In this document: positions 19,124-63,113 of the stretch, piece by piece
How positions within the stretch are numbered: position 1 is the stretch's first letter
Layout: each line of letters begins with the position of its first letter
Assembly (NCBI GenBank): GCA_903813345.2
Contig: CAIIXF020000001.1
Coordinates: 4,712,001-4,776,000 of the forward strand
Length of the DNA stretch: 64,000 nt
Direction of reading: 5' to 3'
Source: Owenia fusiformis
Taxonomy: Eukaryota
The notes under the pieces: model-generated
The model's input: the letters and a program-made list of their open reading frames with translations, nothing else
The model's database searches: none
Told to the model about the DNA's origin: nothing
Translations under genes and position numbers: made by a program

Positions 19124-22100
19124 TATATCTATTTTGGGGGGATTTTGTTTTTAAGTTTTGAATACTTTTTTAAAATCAACCAAAAATTCCTTTGTATAAC
19201 TATAATATTGAGAGGTCTAAAAACATGTTGTATATGCTATTATGTTCCAACAAGGTTCGGAAAGACATTTTATTTCATTCTCAAGAATTGGTAGAAAGGA
19301 GCAAAAACAATTGCACTAAAAAAAACAAAAAATGTTAACAAAAACAGTTATATAAAATATTTCTAAATAATTTTCGCATTAAATTGTTGTCAATCAGTCA
19401 ACATTACATAAAATACCGTGTTTTTTACATAATGTATTCAATGATTGGTTCAAGAGAAAAACATTGTTGAATTCAGTTCTCCATATCGATACCAATCCTT
19501 TCTAATGTTCTATAAAATATGCGATGTTTGCGTTGATATCAGCATCTGTGTGTTACCTTGATAACAATACCATAGTTTATCATTATTGTAGGGTTAATTT
19601 TTAAGATATTGCTTTTTTTCTTGAAGCAAGCTGGAATTTTGGACATAAAAATTGTTTTGATTTTGTATGGCTAATAGGAACTTCTCAAGTAATCAGTTAC
19701 GTATATATGAAAAGATTGTTGGTATTTCTGTTGTTGTACAATGTAACCTTCACTCTGCTAAATTGAATCCCTCGAATACAAATTCATCAGGATCTTCCGA
19801 AATCTACGAAAGGACATGATAATGATGTCGCTCACGAAATCATAAAATATAACATTTCCTCTTCAAAATGATCGTCATAATTGTGTTTAAATTTCGGTTA
19901 ATGGCTTTTCCAAAATATATCACTTATCGTAAATAGGCCCACTTGCAAAGAACTAGTGAGCAATACGAAAAAATATACCATTATCAAAAGCAATATCAAA
20001 AATGCTCACTCCTGTTAAATGTCGCATATGGCAAACTTTATTTTACCATATGCAACATTTGCAAGAACAACTTCATCTAATTATCGAACAAAAATAATGT
20101 CAACCACATACTAGGTTATTGGATAGAGTAATCGAAATGAATAGCAATTATATATCAGTGAAAGATTTTACCTGGCAGGAATCACCAGGTGTCCTGTTAT
20201 AGAAATACGCCGAACATCACAGGAACTTCTCGGATAAGTTAATGTTATGACACGTGTCTGGGTTTTGACAGAAAACATGTTACATTGGGTAATCCAGTCC
20301 CTGGCCTTTTTACAGCATGGTCAGTGACACATCATCCGTGTAATCTCTGACTGGCCTAGAAACATACTATCTATGTAATTTTATGCGCCCTTGATTTGGT
20401 TCCGGCGGTTTTGTTGCCTCATGTCCTCCGTGGCTCCATTCTAATATTACAAAGCCCTGCTGTTATGGATGAAGAAAAGGAAACAGCATTTCTGTCATAT
20501 CGAGGAGCATGTACCCAACGATCGGACTGTTTTTGGAGATATATGGGAAAACAGTAATTCAGTCACTGTATGAACCAATGGAAAGGGACATTGGAGCCTG
20601 GCAGTGGTGCAGAAGGGACTGACGAAGTCCCATCAAATAATTGCGCCCTCTTCATTTAGGTGCCCTAATGTGCACCTATATATTGTTTTCCTTGTTCATA
20701 CATTACACCCTATGTACAAAGGTCGCCCGAAATTACAAGTCTGGGAGAATAGATGTAACAAATCTGTGAGATCTTCAATTGTATTCTAACCGTTATTTTC
20801 TAAATATTTATTTTTGTATCGACCAGGATCAATCAGAGCAATAGGACCAATAATCTCAGGGTAGTCATTATTTGTGTCTAATCAGTAATGCAACCGGAAA
20901 ATATGTAACTTATAGCATTGTTGATCACAAGGATAATTGATTACTTTCTGATTTATCAGACTCCCACATTGCTAAAGAGAGAGTAGAAGTTGTGGATACA
21001 ACTAATAGATCACATTTTCACATTATCAGAACTTCAGATATGAGCTTTACGATAGAGTATCTGACGCATGGTTGACTTGTTTTGGCTTACAAAAGAAGAA
21101 CAAGAATATTAAATAAGATTGACACTCCAGCGATTTCCCATCATGTATGTCTAAAACGGATGTGAAATTCAATTCCGCCAATAACAGTCACAAAATAAAA
21201 TAGATTAAAAATATAATAGACATTGGTAGGTAATGATTGGAACGCCGATATCAATTGATTCCACAGAGCATTGAACCCTAAATAACATGAGCATCAACAG
21301 TGACGTCATCGTAGAGATTAAAATGGATGCATGCTGAGTTTCTGGTTCCACGGACGGAAAAGTATTTCCAAGTTAAATCGAAGTGACAAATGCAGAAATA
21401 GATTTCAGGCCATTGACATATTTAAATGTAATAGTACACATGATGCTTCGAGACACAAATAAAAATACACAGCAAGTCAATTCTAAATAATTGTTCTTCA
21501 AGTGACTGAAGGATAAAGAGAAAATAAAATATTGGAAGTAATTCTTTTAATCAAAATGTCAATGTGTTCCTCACACTCCCCAATTTAAATAGTCTTGTAT
21601 CGAGCCCTTGCGACTCCATGGTCTTTAGTAAGTAGGGTGAAGGTGTCCATGCAGACTTGACGCAAAGTCATAAGCTCATCGAGGATAGAATAAAATGTGT
21701 CGTAATCTGCATCACCCTTGAAATACTTGTTTGGCATACTAAGTAACAATAGACTACAAGTTTGATTTGAAATAACTGCGATTAGAAATCTACCATTACG
21801 CAAGTGAGCAGATTACTTGTCTCCTTTCTTGCTATTCCAGAGATAAAGTACCCTTTGCATCCGTTCGACTTCACATCTTAAAAAAGAGCTTCGTCTATAA
21901 TCAGACTCTGCGCACAGGGTAGAGTTAAGAAATATCTACTTGGGTTTGAAATGGTGCTTGCTTTAATTCAAATTGATCTGTGCATGGGGGATTGACTGGG
22001 ATGGTAAGCCCGGGGAGGTAAGGCGCGGGAGGTAAGGTCATCTCCATACAACTGTTTATAATTTCCCTAACTGACCCAGGGACAAAATATGTCAATGTTT

Positions 22101-24670: not shown

Positions 24671-25049
24671 ATGAAGGAGAATTGGGCAGATTGATTTTGC
24701 TATTGGGACTGATGAGTTATTTGCACACCAGTCACGACATATTCCCGGCCTTAAAATTCTCTTTTCATTGATAATCATAATATACTGAAATCGACAACTG
24801 CGATATTGGCACCCGTTACTTAGTTTTCATTGTCCTCATTGTATCGGAATATAATAGGCTAATTGATCTTTAAATCGTCCGTTTATACTGACATAGCGCG
24901 TGTTATAGACAATCATATTGGAAATAAAATCATTGGTTATAATAAAGTATGTGTAAAAAGACAATTATTTATTGATCATTAAAGTTCTGTATCGTAAATA
25001 CATTACACATTGGTGTTACTTGTCTGGCTGGGATCATAATGTTATTACG

Positions 25050-27052
25050 TAAGCTGCTTACAGCTGTGTCTTCACTTTGTTAACTACACAGCTGTGTCTT
25101 TTCAGTATGTAAATTACTTACAACTAGCTGTGTCTTCTATACTACTTAAATTGCTTACAGTTGTGTCTTTTCAGTATGTAAACTTCTCACAGCAAGTGTC
25201 TTCTTACTATGTAAACTGCTTACAGTTGTGTCTTCTTACTCTGTAGACTGCTTACAGCTGTGTCTTCTTACTTTGTAAACTGCTTATAGCTGTGTCTTTT
25301 TACTCTGTAAACTGCTTACAGTTATGTCTTCCTACTATGTAAACTGCTTATAGCTGTGTCTTTTTACTCTGTAAACTGCTTACAGCTATGTCTTCCTACT
25401 ATGTAAACTGCTTATAGCAGTGTCTTTTTACTTTGTAAACTGCTTATAGCTGTGTCTTTTAACTCTGTAAACTGCTTACAGCTATGTCTTCCTACTATGT
25501 AAACTGCTTATAGCTGTGTCTTTTTACTCTGTAAACTGCTTACAGCTATGTCTTCCTACTATGTAAACTGCTTACAATTGTGTCTTCTTACTATGTAAAC
25601 TGCTTACAGCTGTGTCTTCCTACTATGTAAACTGCTTACAATTGTGTCTTTTTACTCTGTAAACTGCTTACAGCTATGTCTTCCTACTATGTAAACTGCT
25701 TACAATTGTGTCTTCTTACTATGTAAACTGCTTACAGCTGTGTCTTCCTACTATGTAAACTGCTTATAGCTGTGTCTTTTTACTCTGTAAACTGCTTACA
25801 GCTATGTCTTCCTACTATGTAAACTGCTTACAATTGTGTCTTCTTACTATGTAAACTGCTTACAGCTGTGTCTTCCTACTATGTAAACTGCTTACAGTTG
25901 TGTCTTCTTACTCTGTAGACTGCTTACAGCTGTGTCTTCTTACTTTGTAAACTGCTTATAGCTGTGTCTTTTTACTCTGTAAACTGCTTACAGTTATGTC
26001 TTCCTACTATGTAAACTGCTTATAGCTGTGTCTTTTTACTCTGTAAACTGCTTACAGCTATGTCTTCCTACTATGTAAACTGCTTATAGCAGTGTCTTTT
26101 TACTTTGTAAACTGCTTATAGCTGTGTCTTTTAACTCTGTAAACTGCTTACAGCTATGTCTTCCTACTATGTAAACTGCTTATAGCTGTGTCTTTTTACT
26201 CTGTAAACTGCTTACAGCTATGTCTTCCTACTATGTAAACTGCTTATAGCAGTGTCTTTTTACTTTGTAAACTGCTTATAGCTGTGTCTTTTAACTCTGT
26301 AAGCTGCTTACAGCTATGTCTTCCTACTATGTAAACTGCTTACAATTGTGTCTTCTTACTATGTAAACTGCTTAGACCTGTGTCTTCTTACTATGTAAAC
26401 TGCTTACAGCTGTGTCTTCTTACTATGTAAACTGCTTACAGCTGTGTCTTCTTACTATGTAAACTGCTTATAGCTGTGTCTTTTTACTCTGTAAACTGCT
26501 TACAGCCATGTCTTCGTACTATGTAAACTGCTTACAATTGTGTATTCTTACTATGTAAACTGCTTACAGCTGTGTCTTCTTACTATGTAAACTGCTTACA
26601 GCTGTGTCTTCTTACTATGTAAACTGCTTATAGCTGTGTCTTTTTACTCTGTAAACTGCTTACAGCCATGTCTTCGTACTATGTAAACTGCTTACAATTG
26701 TGTCTTCTTACTATGTAAACTGCTTACAGCTGTGTCTTCTTACTATGTAAACTGCTTATAGCTGTGTCTTTTTACTCTGTAAACTGCTTACAGCCATGTC
26801 TTCGTACTATGTAAACTGCTTACAATTGTGTCTTCTTACTATGTAAACTGCTTACAGATGTGTCTTCTTACAATGTAAACTGCTTACATCTGTGTCTTCT
26901 TACTTTGTAAACTGCTTACAGCTGTGTGTTCTTACTATTTAAACTGCTACACAGTCGTGTCTTCCCACTTTTTAAACTGCTAATACACCTGTGCCTTTTC
27001 ACGATGTAAACTGCTTATGGCTGTGTCCTCTCACTATGTAAACTGCTTATAG
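25050..27052. repeat. 32-bp satellite array, ~62 copies
   Basis: Unit CTGCTTACAGCTGTGTCTTCTTACTATGTAAA; degenerate at both edges. Confidence 0.97.
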
Positions 27053-29579: not shown

Positions 29580-29602
29580 TAGCTAGCATTGAGGAATATC
29601 CT

Positions 29603-30030
29603 AGATGCGAGTAGAAATAATCTTGATTAACATCATTAAAAATTCACAATTCAGTCAAACTGGTGTCATATTTGGAATCTACATATAAAATTACATCGAA
29701 AAATGTGGTTTTGAAAAAATTTTATCAACTTAGAAAAATTAATTTTCTTTGAAAATGTGACTTCTAGGTCGGGGAGATTCCCCATAGACCCTATGTCGTA
29801 AAACCACAAAAAGTGAAATATCTTGTCTTGTGTTGGGCAGATAATATTTTCTTTTACTGGACATATTTTAATTTGTATAACTATCACATACATAAGGGTA
29901 ATTTGAAAAGTGAACCACTAAAACGGATGCATATTCAAGTGTAAGGGAATTTTGTAATACCCTGCCATGTTATTTCCCCCGAATCAGCCACCTGGTGGCG
30001 AAGCTGGTAACTAACTACCTACTCGCATCT
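29603..30030. mobile_element. MITE with AGATGCGAGTAG TIR; fragments also at ~49427-49525 and 30288-30366
   Basis: 12-bp inverted ends; dispersed homologous fragments within the window. Confidence 0.5.
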
Positions 30031-40200: not shown

Positions 40201-40779
40201 AGGAAATGAAATAATCATGTTATTTTAAAGTTTTTTGAATGAAGTAAGATAACTGAGTTCTGCTTTGATCTTCAGTCAGTTGTAGTACTCCCATATATCA
40301 TTTACATGGCCAGGATCACAATGGTTATTGTCAAAATGACCTTTACCATCAAAATAGCTTTTTCAGCCCTAATAAAAAATATATATAACTTTTTCAGGAA
40401 ATGCCTTGCAAAAGTAGAATAGAGGACCAACAACAATGCCTTGACTCAACCTAGAACAGAAATTATGTTCAAATCCTCTGATGGAGAACACTAGGTAAAC
40501 TGTTTGTTTTCATGTAACTAACTGAAGTTGGTATACCATATATATCATCTAAGTTTTGATTTTAAAAAATGTATTGATAAATAAGCAAGAAATGAACTAT
40601 CTATGCATGTGTGTCATGAAAATGTTTCAGAGAAAAATGCATTTTAAAATTATATTCCTCGTAGAAGCAATATTTAAAACATAATATTTGCTTCTTTTCC
40701 TGAAACAGTAAGCTAATCAACATTGGATTATTTTGAAAGTTTAAGGAGACTATACTATTGGGTATATTGAAATTTACCA

Positions 40780-41286
40780 GGCAAGCTTTTGAACCAGGAG
40801 TCATAGGGGGGTTTTCTGTATTGATGTTGAACAGAAATAACTTAAAACAGGAATCCTATCGACAGAGGTTAGCTAGGAAATGGGCTAAAAGTGAATTTCG
40901 CGAGACACAAGTGACGGCCATTTTGAAAATAGGCGAGCTTTTGAACCAGGAGTCATAGGGGGGTTTTCTGTATTGATGTTGAAAAGAAATAACTTAAAAC
41001 AGGAATCCTATCGACAGAGGTTAGCTAGGAAATGGGCTAAAAGTGAATTTCGCGAGACAAAAGTGACGGCCATTTTGAAAATAGGCGAGCTTTTGAACCA
41101 GGAGTCATAGGGGGGTTTTCTGTATTGATGTGGAACAGAAATAACTTAAAACAGGAATCCTATCGACAGAGGTTTTAAAACGTGCCACTATTGTTGACGG
41201 ACAGACAGACAGACAGACGGACGGACGGACGGACAGACAGACGGACAAGTGAGTGATTGCAACAGCTCACCATGTGAGCTAATAAA
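40780..41286 (-). mobile_element. Helentron-type non-autonomous element (HINE-like) with 152-bp tandem repeats
   Basis: 152-bp unit x~2.6 (40785, 40937, 41089), (GACA/GACG)n microsatellite, terminal hairpin AGCTCACCATGTGAGCT followed by an A-tract. Confidence 0.7.
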
Positions 41287-42178
41287 AACATGATTATCTC
41301 ATCTGCATACATGTTGATAATTTAATATAAAATGGAATTCATCACAATTATGGCAATAATAAATGTGAACATTCTCCCACAAATTATATTTTTACTGGAA
41401 TGTCTTCTTGAATTATTACCCACAATGCAACATTTGAAGAGATATTATTTACTAGTAATATGTAGATTTCAAGTATGATATCACATTGACTGAATTTTGA
41501 AAACTTTGAATTGTGTAAATCAAGATTATTTCTAATAACTAGTCCATTGTTATATTGTCATATTGATTACAGAAAACATGATTTTTTCCTATCAAGTTTC
41601 TTATAATATAACATTAATATTCATGTATTTTTCTAATTTTTCAGATTTTTTTGTGTTGGCTGAAGATGTTCCCTGCCATAGGTGCAAAAATGACTGGCTT
41701 CAAAGGTTACTAGATACTTATCAACAATATCAAGCTCAGATTTACAACTTCACATGAATCAATCAACAAAAATGAAGGCGTAACGTTACACCATTCACCA
41801 TCACCTATTAATGGTACAGTTAAATCAACTTTGTCTGATCTGAAAAACTCAGTTCCTGATGAAACACAATGGAGATTTTAAGACCAGACCATGTCCATAA
41901 CAGCAGAGTATTGATAAGGTGAAAACAAAATGATACTGTGCAATGTTAACGAGATGCCAAGAACTATATACTCAAAATGATAACAATGAATGATAACACG
42001 ACTTTGATGTTGACATGAAAATTGAACTATAAAGAGAGTCAGTTAGCAGGGACAATTTGATTCTTCTGTCTTCCAACTCTTTGAGGTAATGATTTATGAT
42101 TCAAAATTAGATAAGGATATATTGGAAAATACTAATATTGGAAATATTCTGGAAAATACTATTTGCTGGAAAGATTTA

Positions 42179-42616
42179 TAGGCTGTCCCAAAAGTATGGG
42201 ACCCCCACAGGCAGAATGTACCAATGCCCCCATTGTCATATGTGATTTTAAAGCTTATCCAAAGTTACATTGATTTGCCAAGTATCATGTGTCAATTCCC
42301 AAATTGGAAAAAGGTTACAGATTTTTCAAAATTTACTTTCTGGCTACAGTTGAAGTTCAGTTTTACACTAAATTAGTAGTAGTGTGTCTTTCCTTGGCCA
42401 TGTTGCATTTTAAATCATCTTAAAACATTTTTAAGGAAATAAAGAGTTTCCATGGAGTATCTACCCTCACCTTGGCCAAACACTATTTGAGAGTTGAATC
42501 ATGATACTGGACAAGTCAATGTAATTCTTGATAACCTTCAAAATGTTATATAATACATACTGTGAAGGCATTGGTATATGTCTGCCTAGGGGGTCCCATA
42601 CTTTCTGGACACCCTG
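42179..42616. mobile_element. Tc1/mariner-type MITE
   Basis: TIR (C/T)AGG.TGTCC..AAAGTATGGGACCCC with TA on both sides. Confidence 0.75.
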
Positions 42617-43302
42617 TACACTGGTACATTGGTAAATAGTTTTTAAAATCTTAGTTTTTCATTTCAACCAAATTAATGATTATTTCTGCTTATCTAAAAT
42701 TTTGGTTGTCTATCCATTGAATCTGTGAGTTTTTGGCATGACCCCCCTCCTCACAGGGGCTGTGTTGAGAAAAAGGGTTAGAAATATGTCGCTGGAATTA
42801 TGAAATTATGATTTAAAAAAAATGTTAACTGTAATTTTTACATGTTTTTATTCTCATTTTCTGCTAAATCAGCATGCAACCTGGTGGATGGATGCCACAT
42901 ATATCTTGTCATTAAAATACCAAGGAAACAACCTATCAGTTATTTCACATGGCCTCCATTTTGAATTTTTAAATATATTTTGTCATCAAAATGTCTTCCA
43001 CTCATGGTATTCAATTTGAATTTGTACAACTTTGATGTACAACTTCAAAGTCTATAGCTGACGAACTTTCGGAACTCTGGAGGATAAAACTTCATACAAA
43101 TCGACTGGTGCTATGCTCATTGAGAGTGATATTTATTAGTTTTTGTCTTGTCCTATTATTTTCTGTTAAAAAGCTAGAACGAGATTCATGAAAACTGAAA
43201 TTTTGAGAATATCCTCATTCCAAAAACTTGGTCAAATGTAGCAAGTTTTAATGTCATTTGGTCAATTTTCAATTACACACTTCCTGTCTGTCTAGATCTA
43301 CA

Positions 43303-44246
43303 TTTATTATCCCATCGAAAGAAGTTCATTTTACGATTTTTGCTGTAACTCAAAATATAGTGGAGCGATTTTGTTCATATTTGGTATGTGAATACTATAA
43401 GCATTGCACACTGTCTAAAGACACTTTTGGTAGAAGGCGGCCATTTTGAAAAATGGCCGCAATTTTAACGTATTTTACTATAACTCAAAAAGTAGTGGAG
43501 CGATTTTTTTCATATTTGGTATGTGAATACTATAAGCATGGCACACTGTCCTATGAAATTTTTGGTAGAAGGCGGCCATTTTAAAAAAAAAATTTGAAAA
43601 ATGGCCCCCATTTTAACGTATTTTACTATAACTCGAAAAGTAGTGGAGCGATTTTGTTCATATTTGGTATGTGAAAACTATAAGCATGGCACACTGTCCT
43701 ATGACACTTTTGGTACAAGGCGGCCATTTTGAAAAATGGCCCCCATTTTAATGTATTTTACTATAACTCGAAAAGTAGTGGAGCAATTTTGTTCATATTT
43801 GGTATGTGAATACTATAAGCATGGCACATTGTCCTATGACACTTTTGGTAGAAGGCGGCCATTTTGAAAAATGGCCGCCATTTTAACGTATTCTACTAAA
43901 ACTCGAAAAGTATTGGAGCGATTTTGTTCATATTTGATATGTGAATACTTTAAGCATGGCACATTGTCTAATTAAACTTTGGGGAGTAGTCGGCCATTTT
44001 GAAAAATGGCCACCATTTTTATGTGTGTTATTTTACAAGTATGTGTGCGATTTTTCGAAAATTTTAGAGATGGCTACTTAAAAGCATATTAATTCTCCTG
44101 ATGACAACTTGGCTAGTGAGCAACCATTTTGAAAATGGTGGCCTTTCTGATGTGTTGTTTTATGATATTTGCATTCGTTTGTAAAAATGCCAGCCATTTC
44201 TGTTCGATGGGATTCGCTACGCTTTGGCATTGCCGTTGTTCTGGTT
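43303..44246 (+). mobile_element. HINE-like element with 135-bp tandem array
   Basis: Subterminal IR ATCCCATCGAA (43309) and TTCGATGGGAT (44203); ~5 copies of a 135-bp unit at 43345-44020. Confidence 0.7.
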
Positions 44247-47183
44247 TCTATCATGTCTATCTGTGTCTGAAATTGGGGCACACTTTAAAATCACTTCCCT
44301 ATGAATGATGATGAATTCGTTCCCTTATTGTATGGTTTAGAAGGTATCAATCAAGTTCTGCTATTTTGAACACATGCAATATTATATAAATTGTATTGAA
44401 TATCATGAAAATAAAGTGAATTATTGATAATATTTAAAATAATTATAACATCTGTCTGTGTCATATTTGTTGTTAGCATAATTTTTACAAAATTTGCAAT
44501 TATATCCCCAGCATGAAAACATTAAATATTGCATTATTAGAGCAAAAGTATGTACCAGGCATAATTCTGTTACAAATGCTAGGTATAACATTTTCAACAA
44601 ATGAGTATTCTCGATTTGAAGAACGAAGTTCATCACTCTAGCGTTACCCTGCTTTGCACAATTCTTTTACATTATTTAGGCTAGATTTGAATGTCTGCTT
44701 TTGAAAAGATTTAATTTGGGTGATATTTCAAATTTTTTCATATAAAAAAATAAATTATGAGTGCAGTAAACTGATGAACTTCTTTCTCCAAATCTAGACT
44801 AATTGTATTTTATTGAATCGGTCTACTCACTGCACGTAATACCCCTGCTTCGAACAATTGTGATATTTTTACATCTTGCAGAATTAAGTGTGTTCTTTTG
44901 AATATTCATGATTTAATTTGGGTGATATTTCTAAATTTTTCATTAAAAAATTATGAGCCCAAGAGACTGTTCTCCGTACGGCGACGTCTCCTTTTATTCC
45001 AGTCCAGGCATAAATTCTATGCTAAATTTTATATTCGAACACGAATGTATTCACGCCTTCTATAAAATGTAAACAAAGTCAACATTTCACGCGGAGTGTA
45101 TTCGACAATATTACCCCTGCTTTTCGGTCTATATTTCTTAATTATATTCTCATTCTCAAGCTACTATTTTTACCATTAGCAACCAATTAAAAACTTAGGC
45201 CTACAATGGAGTGATTGGATCAATATTTTTATGAATTAGACAATGGTTGCCTCAAGTTAGCCCCTTCAGTGATAAATGAAGAAATGTAACCTCTTGCAAT
45301 GATATACAAATGTCATTCATGTACATTATGAATATACTTTTCCATATATTATTGCCATTCCTTAAATTTATGCCCCAGCATTGAACATTCTCAGATTCCA
45401 ATTTCAATATAATATTCAGTTGAAAATCAAAATTAACGTTATTATTCTATATTTTCTGAGTTTTCTGATTTAGTTACATTTACCAATAGAATTTATATTT
45501 TCTATGGTAACCCATCATGATAAACAATGCCATCTCAAATCTTCTCAGCCCTGAGATGCCATGATATAATGAGCTTGATTTGGCGATCCAGGAGAGCCCA
45601 AATTTGAGGATTTTTGAGATCTTTCATCCCAGCTCATATTTCATCTAATTGGGGTCATTAAACTTGTGTAACTATGCCTGTTGTAATATCTGCTGTTAAA
45701 TACAATGCCTATTATGTAATGTATTGACATTAAGGTAGATGATTACATGATAACAATCACACTTATTGATAGTTTTAACTTTTCCCATCTGATTTGCTCA
45801 GATCACAGAATATGCCTCATAATATCAGAGCATGTTTCAGGTGAAACAGAAAGATGCTATGAGTATCAGAATGATGGTAACCGGGTACTACTAGATATAG
45901 TAATTGGTATGTTATAATTTGCCTTTTGGGTCACTGTACTCAGTGACCGGTATCATTGACCTCCTGTGGAATGTATTTGACAAGTACATGTAGTTCACTC
46001 TAGAATAGACATCAGGAGACGGTAAAGAGTCGATTAAATACAAATAATCGCGCGTGTTATGCAGTTTTAAGGTATGTGCAGTACCTATATGATATAGACT
46101 TTCTTTTAATCTCGTTGGTCAAGCGATTTACCAAGAACAAATCGGTTGAAGAGCTCACTAAACTCGTCGAATGTCAGAAGGAAAATCGCCATTCAGCTGA
46201 TTCCAAATCGAGTCAGCCCCGATAAGGACAGCTCATTTCAACTTAATGTCCAGCGAATCTGTCTAGTATAGATCCAGACACACTTATATGAAGGGACATA
46301 GACCACTCACGTCATAACTTATAAAGTTACACCTTGAAATCTGAAAATACATGTTACAAGTCGAAAACAACAGTTCAAACTGCCTACCGAACTAGTGTTT
46401 TTATTCGATTGTTTCAAGGGGTCTTCAAAATTCTCGCAATGAAAGTTCAAATTACCCTACTTATATTGAAGTTTGCGTGATCGAAACCTATTTAAATCGT
46501 AAAAAGAAACTATACTTTATGTCTCTGCCAAGTATAAAGTGTAAATATTCTGTAGTTTTTGCAGGATTAGAATATCTATTCGGGAAGTGGGGATTCTGGA
46601 CGTATGCCGAGAATTTTTAATCACCGGCGCGTAGTGATAATCGTGACGTCATATTTTGGTTTGGCCGCCCAGCTGTACAGAGTAAAGGAAGGTCAATAAA
46701 ACATTCTAATAAGTCCCTGACATTTACAATTTAGGAGTTACTTCAGAATCAAAGTCATTGAACTGCTTCAATTGTTACTGATTGACGCAGAATAGTTATA
46801 GCTGTTGCCGTTGCCAAAAATAATGAACTGAAATTTAATTTGACCTTCATATAGATATAAATCTCTAGAAAAACATAAAAAATGAAGTCACAACGCTTAT
46901 GTACTGGTATATCAGAAACTAAAATAAATTGAAGCTAATATTAAACATGCAGTTTAATTACACAGTCTGCATAAGCATAAGAAGCTATAAGCTTGAGTTA
47001 TTGCACAAACATAAATTCCAATATTTGCTTATAATACCTGAAAAGACGTGCAATTTAGTAAAGCCAAGTTTTGCAACAGAAGCCAAAAATTGTACCCTCT
47101 TCCTAAATATTCCATTATGAAAACCAAGTAGACCTGATGTCTTATGAGCTACTGGGTGAAAGTCACTTCCAAATCCACATTAC

Positions 47184-47348: not shown

Positions 47349-49699
47349 CTGTTTAAAATAATAAAATATAAAAACTTCAAATCTAACTACTCTATTCTAG
47401 ACATTCAGAAGCTATGAATCTGTACAATCCCCAAATTATCCAGATAATTTTTTGACAGTTAAGATGCATTGTGGAATTAAACAGAGATAATTCTCGAATT
47501 CAGTTTTCAATGAAATATTATTCTAAAAATAATTTGCAAAAAACTAGGATCGCAAATATTCTCCCAAAGAAAATGTATCAATATTATTCTAGATTTAATT
47601 CTAGGATTGTACGAATTCAAAGCCTAAGGTCTACTACACAGACTAGAAAATCATGTAGTGAGATCATTACACAAGCTAGGGTCTGTGTATGAAGACCGAT
47701 TCATAGAATACCAAGTGTCTCTCGATGAATTGTAACCATATTATGCCAGTAGCAAATCCAAACAAACATTTTATTCATGAATCTGAAATATGTCACAATA
47801 TGATATTGTCATGATTTGCACATAAAAAGACATTGATCAGTGAAATCTCAGAATCTGATATTTGAGTCATTGTCAAGACAGATGCACGGATGGATGGACA
47901 GACATAGGGACGAATCAAATGGAGAGCTTCGCCATATCCCAACTCAGGCTTCATTCGGTGGGATATTAAGACTAGATCATAAGTTACCCCGTTGATTTCA
48001 AAATGAGGTGTCTTAACTTTTAATCACCTAGTAGACTACGGCCCACTCTGATAATTGTAACTCCTTCCTTACATGAAAGGTTACACATTCCAACCTATTT
48101 CAAACCATCTGTATGATTATACTGGACACTTTCTGGGTAGTTGGACTTTCTATAGGGGTGGCAGACGGCCCTCAGACCAATTTATACCCCTACCCCCAAA
48201 ACACCATGGGGGTACTTTAATACCACCCAATAAAAAGAATACTAATGTATGTCAGATATTCATTGTTTTATATTGGGTAGGGCATGTTATGGTTAGCTAG
48301 TGCCAGAAATTTCCAATCTCTAACTTATATGGTTACCATAGAAACAGTATTTATATCTCGAAATATTCTCAATTTGACCCCCTCCCAAATGTGTCCCTTT
48401 GTTCTCAAAGTGAAATATTTGCAAATCTGTTTGGATTTTATGGCTGCTACTTTGTCAAAAATTGTATCAATATGTATATTTTAACATTTAAACACTGAAA
48501 AGTGTTCATAATGATCCTATAAATCAATAATATTTATCAAATATAGTCACACATAGCTGCTTTCAGGGAAAAGTGGGCGTGGCACTTTTTGGTACGTGTG
48601 TACTTGTTGCAGCATTAAATGAAAAATACATATTATACTAACAACAATTGACATTTAATTAGCATCTACTTATGTTGTGTAACATTGTAATATGTTCATT
48701 ATCATTATTAGACACTTTAAATATTTTATATAAGTGTTATCCTGACCCTTCCCTTTATCCCTACACCCTTCAAGGTGGGCATTACCAATCGTGTCAAGTT
48801 AACATTTCTGTTTGATTTATTTTTACCATAGACAAGGTTCAAAAGCTTTACCATGAGTACTGACCTTATTAGGTGCTAAACTGATGAATGGATAGGTAGA
48901 TGGCAGCACTTGTGCTGGTTGGACTACACGCTAGCATCTACCATAGACACATATTAATTTACCATATTTGTTATTTTGGATTAAAGTAAAACTGCTTTCG
49001 CATCAAACTTAGTGAGATTCAGATTGTGTTTGAAACTAGATGATCTTCAGATTTTGTGTGAACCTTAAATTCATGACAATCAAAAGAATTCAACATTTAG
49101 GAAGTCAACATTAAGATTTTTAACATCATCTCAATGAGAATTTAGCACGACCTTAAGTTAAAGATCATAGAAAATTGAACATAATCAAAGTTCCTCAGTA
49201 GAACATTTAATCTCCTAAAATCACATTAAAACTATATCAGCAATATTTCCAAGCTAAATAGTATAAAAACTTCTATCACATCATTTGCAACGTTTTCATT
49301 ATTCAATAGTTCAACCCTATATGAATTATTGATGATTTTAAAAGTGCAAGGAATCTAAATGAATCAGGGAAGCCAGTGATATGTATTTGCCTTATTAATT
49401 GTTGACTTATACAATGAAATAGACTTAGATGCAAGTAGAAATGATCTTGCTTTACATCATAAAAAATTCAAAATTCAGTCAAATAAGTGATATCATATTT
49501 GAAATCTTCATGAAGAATTACATTTCTTCATGCAATAAGTTAACCTTTTAGAGAGTAGTTGTGACTAATGTAATCATGCACTTATATAATTTGTCAGTAA
49601 AAGTTATTTATCCTATACTTAGTGTTATAGGTAAATAAAATGCATGAATATAATTGATACTTAGGTGAGTGGGGATATACATGTACTGCATATCCCGCT

Positions 49700-51635
49700 T
49701 TATCCCATACTTGGTCGTGTTTCAGGTACATAAAGCAGGTTTTTAAAAACTTATATTTTCATCAGCGGGCAGATATAGCTTTACATTCTGTTGCGAGCAG
49801 GCAGATATAGTATATCTGCCCCCTCCGTCATAATCGCCCTTTCGGGATAGTTCCAATATCCTGAACCTCATATAGGATAATCTCTATGTATCGCCAGGTT
49901 TATCGTCTGCTCAGTAATCCCCTGCAGGAATTTCATTCTGTGCAATTTCTCATATTTTCGTATATTAGTATATGATAAATAATTTTGGGTACAAGATATA
50001 ACCCTTGGGAAATACAATATTCTACCCTCAACCCCTCTTGGAGGTATATTGTATTTCCCTCAGATATATTGTATTAATCCCTGTATTAAAAATTTCCCAT
50101 TAATTAAACCTCATATATAATTCACACTATTTTAAATATGAATCAAAACCATGAATTAGTGATATCCATGTTTCTAACGAAAGCATGAATTTGAAAGAAA
50201 CAAACATTCTACTCATATGGTATAAAGATATTACCAGTTGTATCCATTTTAGATTTGATTGAAGAACTTCATTAGAGGCAATTTTGAAATTACAATATAT
50301 TAAAAGAGGCTCTGTTGCTTAGATGGGAGAATATTCTACCCTCAACCCCTCTTGGAGGTATATTGTATTTCCCTCAGATATATTGTATTAATCCCTGTAT
50401 TAAAAATTTCCCATTAATTAAACCTCATATATAATTCACACTATTTTAAATATGAATCAAAACCATGAATTAGTGATATCCATGTTTCTAACGAAAGCAT
50501 GAATTTGAAAGAAACAAACATTCTACTCATATGGTATAAAGATATTACCAGTTGTATCCATTTTAGATTTGATTGAAGAACTTCATTAGAGGCAATTTTG
50601 AAATTACAATATATTAAAAGAGGCTCTGTTGCTTAGATGGGAGAATCAATTAGCTGCATTGTTCAGTTTATGACAAAATTGATGTTTAGTGTTACTTTCA
50701 TGAACACCCATCCTGTAAAATAGCATTTGGAATCTAGTAGTTTGTATATAGATGAATTAGATAAGGCATTGTCGAGGAAAAAATATCCAACAAGATTACT
50801 AATTTGCTCATGAAATTAGGCATACTTTAACTTGAAACAATTTGTAACACTCAATTTTTGGGGTTTGGAGATCGAAGTAATAATGATGAAAAACAAGCAA
50901 TTTTAAAATATTTATGTTTTACCCAAATTTTTAAAGATTTTTGTTAGCCTTTGTTTCGTCTGTTTTATTCTCAAATAAATCATGGTCACCAATTTTAAAA
51001 TTAAATATTACTGGTTAGAGAATGTGATTTCTTACTTTAGGTTATATTTATATCCCGATTTATATGTATAATAATAATTGATGAAGACAAATAGAGATTA
51101 TCCTCTATGAGGTTCGGGGTATTGGAATTATCCCGAGGCCAATATAATATATCTGGTCGAGGGTCGTAGGTCCCGAGGGAAGATATTTTCTATTGGCCAA
51201 AGGCCTTAGGTCCTGAGGGAAGATATATTATATTTGCCAAGGGATAATCCTAATAGCATGAACTGACTATAGGATTATCTGTTTATCCCATATCAATCTC
51301 TCTTATCTGGTTCACATTGTTCAATTGGCCAGAGTTAGAAAGAATACAACCACATGAATGTATTCATGACTAATTTTGTTTTCTTGGCCTTAGGAGGATT
51401 CTCCTGTTTTTTAAGTATTCATCCACATATTCTCGAATCATTGATTATTAACATATGTATTAAGTATGCTACTTCCTTCATTGCTAATCATACACAAATG
51501 ATGATTATGACTTAGTGGGCAGGTGTAATTTATCTGCCCTCTCAGGCAGGGACATTAGCTATATCTGCCCGCTGATGAAAATATAAGTATTTATAAACCT
51601 GCTATATGTATCTGAAACATATCCAAGTATGGGAC
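49700..51635. mobile_element. Nested inverted-repeat element(s) inside the long-TIR element, possibly Crypton-like
   Basis: Inverted pairs ~49703-49780/51558-51633 and ~49843-49886/51092-51135; CCGAGG-rich stem motifs at 51130-51250. Family call is from recalled pattern only. Confidence 0.45.
50016..50646. repeat. 314-bp direct tandem duplication inside the long-TIR element (also at 55256-55886)
   Basis: AATATTCTACCCTCAACC starts at 50016 and 50330; 3-bp AAT microhomology at the ends. Confidence 0.9.
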
Positions 51636-53271
51636 AAATGTATCCACTTTGATTTCATACACTAAACCGATTTGTTTAGGAATTATATGAAGTATTTCAA
51701 AAACATATACCGAACCACTATTGAAGGAATCATTGAAAATACAGCATATCAGAAACATGTGTAAATTGTTTATCTTGCAATTATTTTGCTAAATACTAAT
51801 AGAAATTATACTGTACCTTCCAGAGGATAGCTTTTTTGTTAACTATGAGCCAATGAATGAATGAATGCATTTTATTATAACTGCAAAATGATGCTCTATG
51901 CAATTCATACGAAAAATTAATTTTGCCATATTAGAATCAAGTATAATCTTTAATCCATTTGATAGATAGATCATGCATTGCCTGATGTTGAGGTATTGAT
52001 AAAAGAATCAGCAAGTGTCTGACAAAATAGATTTTAGTGTTGTGTATTAGGCAAAATATTAGGAAGGGTATAAATGGTCTCCAATCTTTCTAGTTTTGAG
52101 TATTATGTCTTGTTGCTTTGATTCAAATTATCCTCGGTCACTATTTGTAACCCCTCCCTCCTTCCCCATTTAGGCCATGGATATGAAGATGTTTTAGAGG
52201 TTATGTGAAGGATACCAGGGAAGGGTTAATAGCCAGAGTTAAATTAGTTCATTTAATCATAAATGTTATGCAATTCACACTAGCATCAAATATCATACCA
52301 AAAGGATTGAACTGTTCATTACTTTTCAATTGCAGTAAACATGGTAAAATGGTTCTTAATATTGAACATTGTTGAACAAGCATAGATGACTTGAATAGCT
52401 CTAGATGACTTGAACTTATCCATTCATATTCTAGGAACAAGTCAATGAATAAGTAAGACTTGACTCTTGAAAGGCTTAAAAGACCGAGGACCCTATAAGA
52501 CTTAAACTAAAAGTTCATTTGACCATTGATGACCTATGATAGGGAAGGGTCAGGATAACACTTATATAAAATATTTAAAGTGTCTAATAATGATAATGAA
52601 CATATTACAATGTTACACAACATTAGTAGATGCTAATTAAATGTCAATTATTGTTAGGGTAATCTGCATTTTTCATTTAATGCTGCAACAAGCGCACAAG
52701 TACCAAAAAGTGCCACGCCCACTTTTCCCTGAAAGCAGCTATGTGTGACTATATTTGATAAATATTATTGATTTATAGGATCATTATATCAACTTTTAAG
52801 TGTTTTAGTGTTAATATAGACATAATATTACAAATTTTGACAAAGTAGCAGCCATAAAATCCAAACAGATTTTGAAATATTTCACTTAGAGAACAAAGGG
52901 ACACATTTGGGAGGGGGTCAAATTGAGAATATTTCGAGATATAAATACTGTTTCTATGGTAACCATATAAGTTAGAGATTGGAAATTTCTGGCACTTATT
53001 AACCATAACATGCCCTACCCAATATAAAACAATGAATATCTGACATGCATTAGTATTCTTTTTATTGGGTGGTATTAAAGTACCCCCATGGTTTTTTGGG
53101 GGTAGGGGTATTAATTGGTCTGAGGGCCGTCTGCCACCCCTATAGAAAGTCCAACTACCCAGAAAGTGTCCAGTATAATCATACAGATGGTTTGAAATAG
53201 GTTGGAATGTGTAACCTTTCATGTAAGGAAGGTTGCATTTCTAGAGCGCTTCTACAGAATGGCTTACAGTC

Positions 53272-56200
53272 TAGACTACGGCCCACTCTGATAATTGTAA
53301 CTCCTTCCTTACATGAAAGGTTACACATTCCAACCTATTTCAAACCATCTGTATGATTATACTGGACACTTTCTGGGTAGTTGGACTTTCTATAGGGGTG
53401 GCAGACGGCCCTCAGACCAATTTATACCCCTACCCCCAAAACACCATGGGGGTACTTTAATACCACCCAATAAAAAGAATACTAATGTATGTCAGATATT
53501 CATTGTTTTATATTGGGTAGGGCATGTTATGGTTAGCTAGTGCCAGAAATTTCCAATCTCTAACTTATATGGTTACCATAGAAACAGTATTTATATCTCG
53601 AAATATTCTCAATTTGACCCCCTCCCAAATGTGTCCCTTTGTTCTCAAAGTGAAATATTTGCAAATCTGTTTGGATTTTATGGCTGCTACTTTGTCAAAA
53701 ATTGTATCAATATGTATATTTTAACATTTAAACACTGAAAAGTGTTCATAATGATCCTATAAATCAATAATATTTATCAAATATAGTCACACATAGCTGC
53801 TTTCAGGGAAAAGTGGGCGTGGCACTTTTTGGTACGTGTGTACTTGTTGCAGCATTAAATGAAAAATACATATTATACTAACAACAATTGACATTTAATT
53901 AGCATCTACTTATGTTGTGTAACATTGTAATATGTTCATTATCATTATTAGACACTTTAAATATTTTATATAAGTGTTATCCTGACCCTTCCCTTTATCC
54001 CTACACCCTTCAAGGTGGGCATTACCAATCGTGTCAAGTTAACATTTCTGTTTGATTTATTTTTACCATAGACAAGGTTCAAAAGCTTTACCATGAGTAC
54101 TGACCTTATTAGGTGCTAAACTGATGAATGGATAGGTAGATGGCAGCACTTGTGCTGGTTGGACTACACGCTAGCATCTACCATAGACACATATTAATTT
54201 ACCATATTTGTTATTTTGGATTAAAGTAAAACTGCTTTCGCATCAAACTTAGTGAGATTCAGATTGTGTTTGAAACTAGATGATCTTCAGATTTTGTGTG
54301 AACCTTAAATTCATGACAATCAAAAGAATTCAACATTTAGGAAGTCAACATTAAGATTTTTAACATCATCTCAATGAGAATTTAGCACGACCTTAAGTTA
54401 AAGATCATAGAAAATTGAACATAATCAAAGTTCCTCAGTAGAACATTTAATCTCCTAAAATCACATTAAAACTATATCAGCAATATTTCCAAGCTAAATA
54501 GTATAAAAACTTCTATCACATCATTTGCAACGTTTTCATTATTCAATAGTTCAACCCTATATGAATTATTGATGATTTTAAAAGTGCAAGGAATCTAAAT
54601 GAATCAGGGAAGCCAGTGATATGTATTTGCCTTATTAATTGTTGACTTATACAATGAAATAGACTTAGATGCAAGTAGAAATGATCTTGCTTTACATCAT
54701 AAAAAATTCAAAATTCAGTCAAATAAGTGATATCATATTTGAAATCTTCATGAAGAATTACATTTCTTCATGCAATAAGTTAACCTTTTAGAGAGTAGTT
54801 GTGACTAATGTAATCATGCACTTATATAATTTGTCAGTAAAAGTTATTTATCCTATACTTAGTGTTATAGGTAAATAAAATGCATGAATATAATTGATAC
54901 TTAGGTGAGTGGGGATATACATGTACTGCATATCCCGCTTTATCCCATACTTGGTCGTGTTTCAGGTACATAAAGCAGGTTTTTAAAAACTTATATTTTC
55001 ATCAGCGGGCAGATATAGCTTTACATTCTGTTGCGAGCAGGCAGATATAGTATATCTGCCCCCTCCGTCATAATCGCCCTTTCGGGATAGTTCCAATATC
55101 CTGAACCTCATATAGGATAATCTCTATGTATCGCCAGGTTTATCGTCTGCTCAGTAATCCCCTGCAGGAATTTCATTCTGTGCAATTTCTCATATTTTCG
55201 TATATTAGTATATGATAAATAATTTTGGGTACAAGATATAACCCTTGGGAAATACAATATTCTACCCTCAACCCCTCTTGGAGGTATATTGTATTTCCCT
55301 CAGATATATTGTATTAATCCCTGTATTAAAAATTTCCCATTAATTAAACCTCATATATAATTCACACTATTTTAAATATGAATCAAAACCATGAATTAGT
55401 GATATCCATGTTTCTAACGAAAGCATGAATTTGAAAGAAACAAACATTCTACTCATATGGTATAAAGATATTACCAGTTGTATCCATTTTAGATTTGATT
55501 GAAGAACTTCATTAGAGGCAATTTTGAAATTACAATATATTAAAAGAGGCTCTGTTGCTTAGATGGGAGAATATTCTACCCTCAACCCCTCTTGGAGGTA
55601 TATTGTATTTCCCTCAGATATATTGTATTAATCCCTGTATTAAAAATTTCCCATTAATTAAACCTCATATATAATTCACACTATTTTAAATATGAATCAA
55701 AACCATGAATTAGTGATATCCATGTTTCTAACGAAAGCATGAATTTGAAAGAAACAAACATTCTACTCATATGGTATAAAGATATTACCAGTTGTATCCA
55801 TTTTAGATTTGATTGAAGAACTTCATTAGAGGCAATTTTGAAATTACAATATATTAAAAGAGGCTCTGTTGCTTAGATGGGAGAATCAATTAGCTGCATT
55901 GTTCAGTTTATGACAAAATTGATGTTTAGTGTTACTTTCATGAACACCCATCCTGTAAAATAGCATTTGGAATCTAGTAGTTTGTATATAGATGAATTAG
56001 ATAAGGCATTGTCGAGGAAAAAATATCCAACAAGATTACTAATTTGCTCATGAAATTAGGCATACTTTAACTTGAAACAATTTGTAACACTCAATTTTTG
56101 GGGTTTGGAGATCGAAGTAATAATGATGAAAAACAAGCAATTTTAAAATATTTATGTTTTACCCAAATTTTTAAAGATTTTTGTTAGCCTTTGTTTCGTC

Positions 56201-58513
56201 TGTTTTATTCTCAAATAAATCATGGTCACCAATTTTAAAATTAAATATTACTGGTTAGAGAATGTGATTTCTTACTTTAGGTTATATTTATATCCCGATT
56301 TATATGTATAATAATAATTGATGAAGACAAATAGAGATTATCCTCTATGAGGTTCGGGGTATTGGAATTATCCCGAGGCCAATATAATATATCTGGTCGA
56401 GGGTCGTAGGTCCCGAGGGAAGATATTTTCTATTGGCCAAAGGCCTTAGGTCCTGAGGGAAGATATATTATATTTGCCAAGGGATAATCCTAATAGCATG
56501 AACTGACTATAGGATTATCTGTTTATCCCATATCAATCTCTCTTATCTGGTTCACATTGTTCAATTGGCCAGAGTTAGAAAGAATACAACCACATGAATG
56601 TATTCATGACTAATTTTGTTTTCTTGGCCTTAGGAGGATTCTCCTGTTTTTTAAGTATTCATCCACATATTCTCGAATCATTGATTATTAACATATGTAT
56701 TAAGTATGCTACTTCCTTCATTGCTAATCATACACAAATGATGATTATGACTTAGTGGGCAGGTGTAATTTATCTGCCCTCTCAGGCAGGGACATTAGCT
56801 ATATCTGCCCGCTGATGAAAATATAAGTATTTATAAACCTGCTATATGTATCTGAAACATATCCAAGTATGGGACAAATGTATCCACTTTGATTTCATAC
56901 ACTAAACCGATTTGTTTAGGAATTATATGAAGTATTTCAAAAACATATACCGAACCACTATTGAAGGAATCATTGAAAATACAGCATATCAGAAACATGT
57001 GTAAATTGTTTATCTTGCAATTATTTTGCTAAATACTAATAGAAATTATACTGTACCTTCCAGAGGATAGCTTTTTTGTTAACTATGAGCCAATGAATGA
57101 ATGAATGCATTTTATTATAACTGCAAAATGATGCTCTATGCAATTCATACGAAAAATTAATTTTGCCATATTAGAATCAAGTATAATCTTTAATCCATTT
57201 GATAGATAGATCATGCATTGCCTGATGTTGAGGTATTGATAAAAGAATCAGCAAGTGTCTGACAAAATAGATTTTAGTGTTGTGTATTAGGCAAAATATT
57301 AGGAAGGGTATAAATGGTCTCCAATCTTTCTAGTTTTGAGTATTATGTCTTGTTGCTTTGATTCAAATTATCCTCGGTCACTATTTGTAACCCCTCCCTC
57401 CTTCCCCATTTAGGCCATGGATATGAAGATGTTTTAGAGGTTATGTGAAGGATACCAGGGAAGGGTTAATAGCCAGAGTTAAATTAGTTCATTTAATCAT
57501 AAATGTTATGCAATTCACACTAGCATCAAATATCATACCAAAAGGATTGAACTGTTCATTACTTTTCAATTGCAGTAAACATGGTAAAATGGTTCTTAAT
57601 ATTGAACATTGTTGAACAAGCATAGATGACTTGAATAGCTCTAGATGACTTGAACTTATCCATTCATATTCTAGGAACAAGTCAATGAATAAGTAAGACT
57701 TGACTCTTGAAAGGCTTAAAAGACCGAGGACCCTATAAGACTTAAACTAAAAGTTCATTTGACCATTGATGACCTATGATAGGGAAGGGTCAGGATAACA
57801 CTTATATAAAATATTTAAAGTGTCTAATAATGATAATGAACATATTACAATGTTACACAACATTAGTAGATGCTAATTAAATGTCAATTATTGTTAGGGT
57901 AATCTGCATTTTTCATTTAATGCTGCAACAAGCGCACAAGTACCAAAAAGTGCCACGCCCACTTTTCCCTGAAAGCAGCTATGTGTGACTATATTTGATA
58001 AATATTATTGATTTATAGGATCATTATATCAACTTTTAAGTGTTTTAGTGTTAATATAGACATAATATTACAAATTTTGACAAAGTAGCAGCCATAAAAT
58101 CCAAACAGATTTTGAAATATTTCACTTAGAGAACAAAGGGACACATTTGGGAGGGGGTCAAATTGAGAATATTTCGAGATATAAATACTGTTTCTATGGT
58201 AACCATATAAGTTAGAGATTGGAAATTTCTGGCACTTATTAACCATAACATGCCCTACCCAATATAAAACAATGAATATCTGACATGCATTAGTATTCTT
58301 TTTATTGGGTGGTATTAAAGTACCCCCATGGTTTTTTGGGGGTAGGGGTATTAATTGGTCTGAGGGCCGTCTGCCACCCCTATAGAAAGTCCAACTACCC
58401 AGAAAGTGTCCAGTATAATCATACAGATGGTTTGAAATAGGTTGGAATGTGTAACCTTTCATGTAAGGAAGGTTGCATTTCTAGAGCGCTTCTACAGAAT
58501 GGCTTACAGTCTA
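53272..58513. mobile_element. Non-autonomous long-TIR DNA transposon (Academ-like), copy 2 of tandem dimer
   Basis: Repeats copy 1 at a 5240-bp offset (identical ORF-track entries); shares TA at 53272-73; right flank TAG at 58514-16. Confidence 0.8.
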
Positions 58514-59533
58514 TAGCTAGAAATCAATTAAGGAAACTGATTATTGAGACAAATGTGTGATATAAAACCCGCTCTTAGGGTATAAAGTAGCAGTCATTTT
58601 ACAATCACCAGATCATTAGTTATGGAACTCGATGACAACATCAATTTATTTCAATAAACCGAGAGATACTTAGTTTCTAATTTGTAAAGCATTATGGTAA
58701 GTATTATGCATGGCATATTTGATGACAACTTGTTAATCAAGAATGATGATGCATATCAATCTGAAATAGACCTACTTAGATCAGTGTAACCCCCATTACC
58801 ATTACTCTGAATCTCAACATGAATGTGATAATAATTGTTAGTGACGTGAAGGACAATGTAAGAGATGTTTGCCCTTGTGAGATTGTCCCATAACCACTTT
58901 AAGCCAATGTACATGCATTGACATAACCACTTTAAGGCAAAGTACATATACATACATTGACAACATAGATTAATTTCAAGCCCTCATTTTCATCAATCCT
59001 TAACAAATCCCACATTCCACTTGTTATACATTTATAAGCACATGCAGAAAAACTAGTTTTTGTAGAATACCATTCCAGACTATACATACAGAAATGTAAA
59101 GGCATCCTACACTATTTATGTACCATTTAATACCTTATCCATTACAAATCACAACATTAGTACCATAACCTTATTTCTCATTAGTACCAAATTAACATAA
59201 GTACCAATTCTCATTAGTACCATTTCCTGACACCCTGCTGTATCTGAATAGCAATACTTACATAGAAGCGAATCACAGGGGTTGTTCCTATTTTCTAATA
59301 CAATATGGGAGACATTTAACAATTAAAAAATAAATTGGGACCATAACTAAACTGTAAATAAAACAGGGGTAAAAAAAATACTACCAAAAGCAGAAAATGT
59401 AAGTCAGTAATTAAAGCTATATGAGTAACTAGGATCATGCTATATGGGGCCCATTACAATAAAATTGCCCCTTTCAATTACTGTAATTTTAAAATGGGCA
59501 ACAGTGGGGGCATTGATAATATTATTGTCTTAC

Positions 59534-62156: not shown

Positions 62157-62828
62157 CTAAGATACAACATTAATTCTCCACAAATCATGTACACCAACAA
62201 CACTTAGCCCAAGCAATGTGATTGTGTGCAAAAAACTTAAGGTAGGCCAAAAATAATAGGGGGACTAAATCAAGGTGGTATTTTCCATATAGGACTCCAC
62301 ACAAAGTGCCCCATTAGGCCTACCTTAAGCCAATTTTTGTGAAATTTACCAACAACAGATAGTAATATTACAATAAACTCTTCATGCACAACATACTATT
62401 TAAGAAATATATAAATCCACAACCATCAAGCAACCCTTGTGGCATAACAGAGCCACCTACGTACAGACTTGTAGTATAACACAGTCTGTATTTGCTATAC
62501 TCATCCCATTTAGGACACAATTCGCAGGTGATTCAATCTCATAGTAATGCATTGCCAATGCATATTGCACACCTGTACAAATTAATCATTTAATAACCCT
62601 CACCACTGAAAAGCCATTTAAAATTGTCTATATCAAGTCTAGCACATAGATAGCCCCAAAAAATGAGGGAGTCATCTTTTCATTTAAAGGATTCAATCTC
62701 GGCCCCTCATAAAATGTATACATGTTACCTGTATACAAATAGATATTGTCGAAGTCTACTAATTTTCAGTTTTACATTAAACCTATAATTAGTCAACCCA
62801 ATATTTTTTGTTCATGACATAAATTTAC

Positions 62829-63113
62829 CTGTTTGACAATATCGAAGTCTGCATCATCTCTATCTATACTACTGATGGAGTCGAATCGTCCCTGAGAGTT
62901 CAAGCTAGGCCCAGTCCCCGTGGGGGACACCATATTGTGATGGCTAGGGTCAAAGCCGTCACACACCATGATTGTTAAGACGTCACCTACACTACGGAGT
63001 GCTCGCACTGCCTCCTGGTGGCTGGCACCTATCAGACTGGTGCCATTAACCTCCAGGATCCTCTGTCCAACCACCATACGGCCATCTTTACTTACAGCGC
63101 CACCTGGCTGGAT
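62829..63113 (-). CDS. scrib: Scribble exon, PDZ4 C-terminal half plus SISSIDR motif
   Basis: 285 nt, phase 0/0: IQPGGAVSKDGRMVVGQRILEVNGTSLIGASHQEAVRALRSVGDVLTIMVCDGFD...DSISSIDRDDADFDIVKQ. Confidence 0.95.

Follow-up and report, generated by a model that had tools for sequence, protein, structure and literature searches.

An exact head-to-tail dimer of a putative Academ-type transposon, joined through one shared TA, in Owenia fusiformis

How do two complete copies of a DNA transposon come to lie head to tail, with two base pairs that appear to belong to both? The question is raised by a 5.24-kb element with long terminal inverted repeats (TIRs) in Owenia fusiformis (GenBank assembly GCA_903813345.2, contig CAIIXF020000001.1, positions 4,712,001 to 4,776,000 of the forward strand). 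This whole stretch of 64,000 nt is called the window below, and positions are counted from its first letter. An earlier note, written from the letters alone, had described the locus as an exact dimer of an element with Academ-type ends and had suggested, as a possibility, a single insertion event by a concatemer that came from a circular or replicative intermediate.

When the window was matched against itself at a period of 5240, the match was exact over 48032-53273 (window[x] = window[x+5240], 0 mismatches), and the repeated block covers 48032-58513, or 10482 nt (2x5240+2). The flanks are unrelated to each other: over the 100 nt beyond each end of the block, identity drops to background levels of 24% and 32%. 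With a slash marking the breakpoint, the left boundary reads CACCTAG/TAGACT and the right boundary AGTCTA/TAGCTAG, while the inner junction (53268-53277) reads AGTC-TA-GACT. All three boundaries are as the earlier note had given them, and its head-to-tail dimer at a 5240-bp period, with breakpoints at the element termini, is borne out. Two identical 5.2-kb copies with breakpoints at the terminal bases of a 730-nt TIR are not a product of chance, and the dimer is real as sequence. Its features are collected in Table 1.

Table 1. Features of the dimer and its immediate flanks (window positions).
Feature	Position	Strand	Basis or remark
Left flanking TAG (3-bp target site duplication if the element is of Academ type)	48029..48031	.	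boundary read, register test
Copy 1, TAGACT...AGTCTA, 5242 nt; terminal TA common to copy 2	48032..53273	+	self-match
TIR of copy 1, left arm: core at 48063-48754, diverged tip at 48032-48062	48032..48754	+	inverted-repeat search, alignment
Exact nested tandem duplication, AAT-[311]-AAT-[311]-AAT, period 314	50016..50646	+	copy 2 equivalent 55256-55886
TIR of copy 1, right arm: core at 52541-53232, diverged tip at 53233-53273	52541..53273	-	inverted-repeat search, alignment
Quasi-palindrome created by the dimer (copy 1 right arm vs copy 2 left arm)	52541..53994	.	inverted-repeat pair
Inner junction, a 10-bp perfect palindrome; shared TA at 53272-53273; without target site duplication if that duplication is TAG	53268..53277		
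Copy 2, same as copy 1 at 5242/5242 positions	53272..58513	+	self-match
Right flanking TAG (target site duplication if the element is of Academ type)	58514..58516	.	boundary read, register test

The TIR occupies about 730 nt at each end of a unit. Its 692-nt core is 95.52% identical between the two arms (31 mismatches), and a global alignment of the two ends shows homology as far as the terminal bases, where both read TAGAC(T); the outermost 31 nt on the left and 41 nt on the right are much more diverged than the core, with an indel of about 10 nt between them. Between the two copies there are 0 differences in 5240 nt, which places the 95% upper bound on their divergence at about 3/5240, or 0.06%, against the 4.5% by which the arms differ. 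The duplication is therefore roughly 80-fold or more younger than the arm divergence, if the arms were once identical, and the suggestion that it is by far the younger of the two holds on these counts. In bringing the right arm of copy 1 up to the left arm of copy 2, the dimer has also created a quasi-palindrome whose 692-nt arms are 96% complementary and lie 70 nt apart. Long quasi-palindromes are unstable in cells and hard to assemble; the one here fits a very young event, yet it also keeps alive the rival explanation that the dimer is an assembly artefact.

The unit appears to have nothing to encode its own movement. No open reading frame (ORF) of more than 85 amino acids was found in its interior outside the TIR, and ORFs of at least 30 amino acids in the unit gave no Pfam match beyond noise at E values up to 1 (75 of 77 were scanned, the other two being duplicates within the nested repeat). 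Nor was a transposon protein found among 119 of the window's 125 ORFs of at least 65 amino acids, where the six omitted were copy 2 duplicates. The longest frame of the unit, at 155 amino acids, lies inside the right TIR arm (52776-53240 and 58016-58480, both on the minus strand). It is unusually long for DNA of 34% G+C; its counterpart in the left arm is broken into frames of 79 and 65 amino acids, and the 155-amino-acid product had neither a Pfam match nor, in a comparison with proteins of 85-272 amino acids, a homologue. We conclude that the unit is a non-autonomous, non-coding DNA transposon. There is no further copy of it within the window, and a 29-nt stretch of the TIR had 0 matches in prokaryotic genome contigs. 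Other repeats also lie inside the unit. A weaker inner inverted repeat (49699-49835 / 51503-51638) was considered as a nested transposon and rejected, as it has no target site duplication (TSD), and a short dispersed repeat at 49426-49523 recurs at about 80-83% identity at 29602-29696 and 41460-41534.

How the junction is read depends on where the element ends and on which flanking letters form its TSD. All start and end registers within about +-12 nt were tested for a terminal inverted match combined with a direct flanking repeat, and only two pass. In register (a), 48032/58513, the tips are TAGACT...AGTCTA and the TSD is TAG; the elements then overlap by TA and there is no TSD between them. 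In register (b), 48034/58511, the tips are GACT...AGTC, the TSD is TA and the locus has the form TA-E-TA-E-TA (E, element), with one full TSD between the copies if the TSD is TA and none if it is TAG. The TA/TA of register (b) is indistinguishable from a TA that is the element's own tip. Double insertion fails under a TAG duplication because a second insertion would add 5245 nt, and 5240 are observed. We favor register (a), that of an Academ-type element with a 3-bp TSD, and consider it probable, because most of the Academ tips compared below include the TA and because the additional match of the flanks, TAG/TAG, would arise in only about 2% of cases between two unrelated 3-mers at this base composition. 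If the 3-bp TSD is true, the empty allele would read CACCTAGCTAG; with a TA duplication it would read CACCTAGTATAGCTAG.

Other superfamilies account for these ends less well. The TSDs of hAT, MULE, piggyBac/Kolobok and Sola1 elements are 8 bp, 9-10 bp, TTAA and 4 bp, respectively, and none of these repeats occurs at any register with an inverted match, so these assignments were rejected. The Tc1/mariner type of tip, CAG or CNG beside the TA, was likewise rejected, as the tip after the TA would here be GACT. Within the Academ superfamily, the TSD is given as 3-4 bp for AcademX and 9-10 bp for AcademH in the available portion of PMC10045372, which agrees with the earlier attribution of 3-4-bp TSDs to Academ elements as far as AcademX is concerned. 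A flanking repeat of the AcademH length, 9-10 bp, was absent from the tested registers.

As a reference for the tips we used the manually curated bivalve DDE/D transposon library in supplementary file 8 of PMC10294476; the part of that article available to us states that its curators relied on TIRs, superfamily motifs and TSDs to delimit class II families. The rows covered were parts 1-3 of 36 plus targeted look-ups, and the 5' ends (first 400 nt) of 35 Academ and 37 non-Academ consensi were compared by eye, the latter comprising 20 TcMar, 10 hAT, 3 Sola1, 2 PiggyBac, 1 PIF-Harbinger and 1 MULE. Among the Academ-1 consensi, 30 of the 35 start with TAG, 3 with TAC and 2 with G. Two of them, A.marissinica_6 and A.marissinica_49, start with TAGACT, as do both ends of the present unit, and by eye the start of A.marissinica_6, TAGACTAGTAAGCC, can be set against TAGACTGTAAGCC at the right tip of the dimer unit. 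Several Academ consensi also carry a subterminal AATTGCAAC some 30-45 nt in, where the element has ATAATTGTAAC on the left and GAAATGCAAC on the right. Conversely, none of the 37 non-Academ consensi starts with TA; 19 of the 20 TcMar consensi start with C and none with GACT, and although one of the three Sola1 consensi does start with GACT, no 4-bp TSD is present at that register here. These counts favor the earlier assignment of the ends to Academ. A TSD table was not found in the searched supplement.

The unit shares with the Academ elements of PMC10294476 its TAG... tips and, in register (a), a 3-bp flanking repeat, and its length of 5242 bp is not far from the 5565 bp that the portion of that article at hand gives as the mean of the curated elements. 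It differs from them in its very long TIRs and in having no transposase, nuclease or helicase gene. Academ elements carry an XPG nuclease or a helicase beside the transposase, and these two domains, which Pfam can detect, are absent from the unit's 75 scanned ORFs. For the Academ transposase itself, the accessible text of PMC5751038 describes Pfam as having no model. Taken together, the tips and flanks support an Academ-type reading of the ends, as far as sequence comparison goes.

If the ends are those of register (a), the junction calls for an explanation other than double insertion. We give an even chance to the idea that it was made by joining transposase-cut ends through their palindromic terminal TA, either in place or in a concatemer formed before integration. 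A right end and a left end would be cut by the transposase and then joined to each other, whether by 2-nt cohesive overhangs or by end joining on 2 bp of microhomology. Either join is possible because the terminal TA is its own reverse complement, and the product would be AGTC-TA-GACT in both cases. In place, the reaction might follow replication, with one sister chromatid cut at the element's right end and its partner cut at the left end; joining the two element-bearing arms would leave the original TAG duplication outside the dimer and the other chromatid empty. Off the chromosome, two excised copies could be joined, or a circle could be copied round, and the dimer would then integrate by its outer ends. 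These two courses would be inseparable from the sequence alone. Joining in place is the simplest, as it would yield the same sequence as insertion of a concatemer in fewer steps. The TSD-less junction with its TA overlap, on which the earlier proposal of a concatemer rested, is the better reading; insertion in a single event is possible only, since joining in place gives an identical sequence. A more specific version, in which the Academ transposase makes a 2-nt staggered cut with TA overhangs and generates circles or concatemers, so that the dimer would be the fossil of an extrachromosomal intermediate, possibly copied by rolling circle and integrated once, seems to us quite improbable.

We asked whether the structure of the ends could have placed the breakpoints without a transposase. 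In a DNA co-fold of both ends with their flanks, the long core paired perfectly, whereas ~46 nt at the outer edge of the left end were unpaired and the right tip folded on itself, such that the base of the stem lay tens of nucleotides inside the breakpoints. Slippage at a hairpin base was rejected because this fold leaves the tips unpaired. A switch at the hairpin base would therefore miss the tips, which argues for an activity that recognizes ends, namely a transposase. Nor does a generic duplication account for the large duplication having its two breakpoints at the terminal bases of the transposon.

Generic duplication does nevertheless occur in this DNA, as follows from the nested 314-bp duplication inside each unit, which is exact and bounded by AAT, a 3-bp microhomology, with no convincing transposon ends. 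It predates the large duplication or arose simultaneously with it. In another register, the nested duplication can be read as two abutting 314-bp units with tips ATTCT...AGAAT (inverted match of 5 exact, 9/11 overall) and flanks CAAT/CAAT. A TSD of at least 4 together with a terminal inverted match of at least 5 within +-6 nt was obtained in 489 of 100000 simulated microhomology duplications. The possibility that the nested duplication is itself a dimer of a small transposon, suggestive by simulation, was not used.

How, then, does the junction compare with those of known tandem transposons? To our knowledge, for which no literature search was aimed at Academ dimers or biochemistry, documented eukaryotic dimers keep a TSD between the copies. 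The P element and hobo of Drosophila melanogaster likewise form head-to-tail dimers of complete transposons, and do so quickly while the family is active. According to the part of PMC5932611 available to us, an 8-nt motif resembling a TSD separates the copies in P-element dimers, and intact tandem junctions of hobo also carry an 8-nt motif, 24 of 36 hobo dimers being deleted at the junction; both are attributed to double insertion. P and hobo thus keep a full TSD between copies, while here, if the element is of Academ type, there is none and 2 bp are lost to the overlap. The present dimer resembles this group only if its TSD is TA; with Academ-type ends it is a variant with complete tips, no TSD and a 2-bp overlap. 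The same source, in the text accessible to us, describes Bari1 arrays of D. melanogaster as having neither TSD nor TIR sequence at the junctions and partial elements at the array ends, and reports that rolling-circle replication has been proposed for them (PMC5932611). Bari1 thus offers tandem copies without a junction TSD, as here, but both tips of our element are complete save for the shared TA. Tandem dimers and circle junctions of bacterial IS30, IS21 and IS3-family elements bring their ends together head to tail within a few base pairs. The junctions of these bacterial elements have a short spacer derived from the flank and a known copy-out chemistry, whereas the ends overlap here. Maize Ac/Ds offers an analogy to the proposed chromatid joining, in that right and left ends of different chromatids are acted on, and one study of Ac/Ds (PMC3744419) reportedly describes alternative transposition using sister-chromatid ends. 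In maize Ac, as set out in the portion of PMC4270019 that was at hand, transposase acting on the ends of different chromatids leads to tandem duplications and to joined chromatid ends with 0-9 bp of homology. The Ac/Ds ends are inserted at a new target, with flanking DNA forming part of what is duplicated, whereas the ends of the Owenia element appear to be joined directly to each other.

Several observations weigh against Academ-type ends joined by a transposase. We know of nothing about the cleavage chemistry of the Academ transposase, and the diverged outer 31 and 41 nt of the arms are awkward for a very recent transposase reaction on both ends. The TSD call rests on one locus (n = 1), the tip likeness was judged by eye against 35 Academ consensi out of the 100 in the library, over their first 400 nt only, and the two Academ consensi that start at G look as if the curators had put the TA outside the element. 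Six exact 12-17-mers, namely three stretches of the element's tips and TIR start with their reverse complements, had 0 matches in the library (first 400 nt per consensus, with file 13 outside the search). The earlier note had also called for an autonomous partner with the same ends, and none was found in the 64-kb window. The only other Academ-like element in the window, of 196 bp (44606-44801), is flanked by GAG/ATT and so shows no 3-bp TSD; this element is old and hence weak evidence either way. Its tips are TATTCTCGATTTG on the left and TAGTCTAGATTTGG on the right (reverse-complemented), its 35-nt TIR is 83% complementary, and the only partner tip for the Academ-like end at 44801 is that of the near arm at 44606. 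Finally, the TA register is the cleaner one, since a second element landing in the flanking TA yields exactly TA-E-TA-E-TA, with no extra assumption. This last point amounts to a full alternative, which the earlier note had raised as well: the element would be a TA-targeting one of 5238 bp, GACT...AGTC, and a second identical copy would have entered the flanking TA, for example by a local hop of the sister copy after replication. Its arithmetic is exact (5238+2 added to 5242 gives 10482), register (b) provides the TA duplication and the GACT tips, Drosophila P-element and hobo dimers have one TSD copy between elements in the same way (PMC5932611, as quoted above in part), and TA-targeting MITEs (miniature inverted-repeat transposable elements) with CAG-type tips occur in the window. 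However, the tips agree with those of Academ consensi in which the TA is part of the element, GACT starts no TcMar consensus and only a Sola1 consensus whose 4-bp TSD is missing at this register, and the outer TAG/TAG match would have to be the coincidence of about 2% estimated above. We therefore consider a TA-targeting element unlikely, even though the arithmetic of the earlier alternative stands.

Two further explanations dispense with a transposase reaction at this locus. An assembler might have passed twice through the single genomic copy of the element, possibly by way of reads from excised circles. A false duplication of this kind would give the perfect 5.2-kb identity, and a second exact duplication does lie inside the unit; it would not, though, be expected to start and stop on the last TIR bases with a 2-bp overlap, and such a cycle in the assembly graph would itself need real reads across the tip-to-tip junction, so that we rate an artefact as very improbable. 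Alternatively, the host could have made the duplication by template switching or by end joining on 2 bp of microhomology, perhaps aided by the inverted repeats, in the same process that made the nested duplication. That duplication, exact and bounded by AAT without convincing transposon ends, speaks for this origin, and in corals, according to the part of PMC2872659 available to us, complete MITEs form tandem arrays that have been attributed to replication slippage. Yet both breakpoints of the dimer fall exactly on the transposon tips, and with the tips unpaired in the co-fold and the stem base tens of nucleotides inward, structure-guided switching would not pick them; we hold a purely host-made dimer to be very unlikely.

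Many satellite DNAs are believed to have started out as tandem transposon dimers. A tip-to-tip fusion that uses the final two bases of the element itself points to another way of forming them, in which transposon ends are cut and then joined. The Academ superfamily is abundant in bivalves, and its reaction chemistry is not known to have been studied. As a single unverified locus the dimer is a curiosity; if the junction recurs, it would offer a direct, testable prediction of where the Academ transposase cuts. Should the circle or concatemer interpretation be true, Academ would be a eukaryotic DNA transposon with a partly replicative pathway based on circles or concatemers.

The window around the dimer has 34% G+C, is rich in tandem and inverted repeats and contains almost no long ORFs, and scans of all 64 kb for tRNA genes and Rfam families gave no match. 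It looks like intergenic or intronic DNA of a large-genome animal, in which a PDZ-domain exon of the minus strand, at 62796-63113 (Pfam PF00595, E = 2e-08), gives the only clear sign of host coding sequence. A core motif, AARATGGCSGCC, which is also subterminal in many bivalve Academ-1 consensi, yields 33 matches across the window, compared with an expectation of 5.4, and 0 in the dimer. Nearly all of them fall in two tandem arrays, one at 43327-44019 (135 bp x5, 87%), where the palindromic motif GGCGGCCATTTTGAAAAATGGCCGCC occurs in most units, and one at 40779-41174 (152 bp x2.6, 97%), which has near matches to the core only. Of four inverted-repeat elements at 1442-2365, 18155-19127, 42177-42618 and 10000-11059, three have (TA)CAG-type Tc1/mariner tips; the remaining one, of 1.06 kb, has arms that match at 22/22 positions at the tip TACAAGGGGCG. 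A tandem array with periods of 54/165 bp at 3301-3771 is the source of the window's two longest ORFs, on opposite strands; a YEATS match there was weak, below the Pfam cut-off, and was set aside as likely spurious. Lastly, a 32-bp satellite occupies 25042-27049 with about 63 copies at 84% identity.

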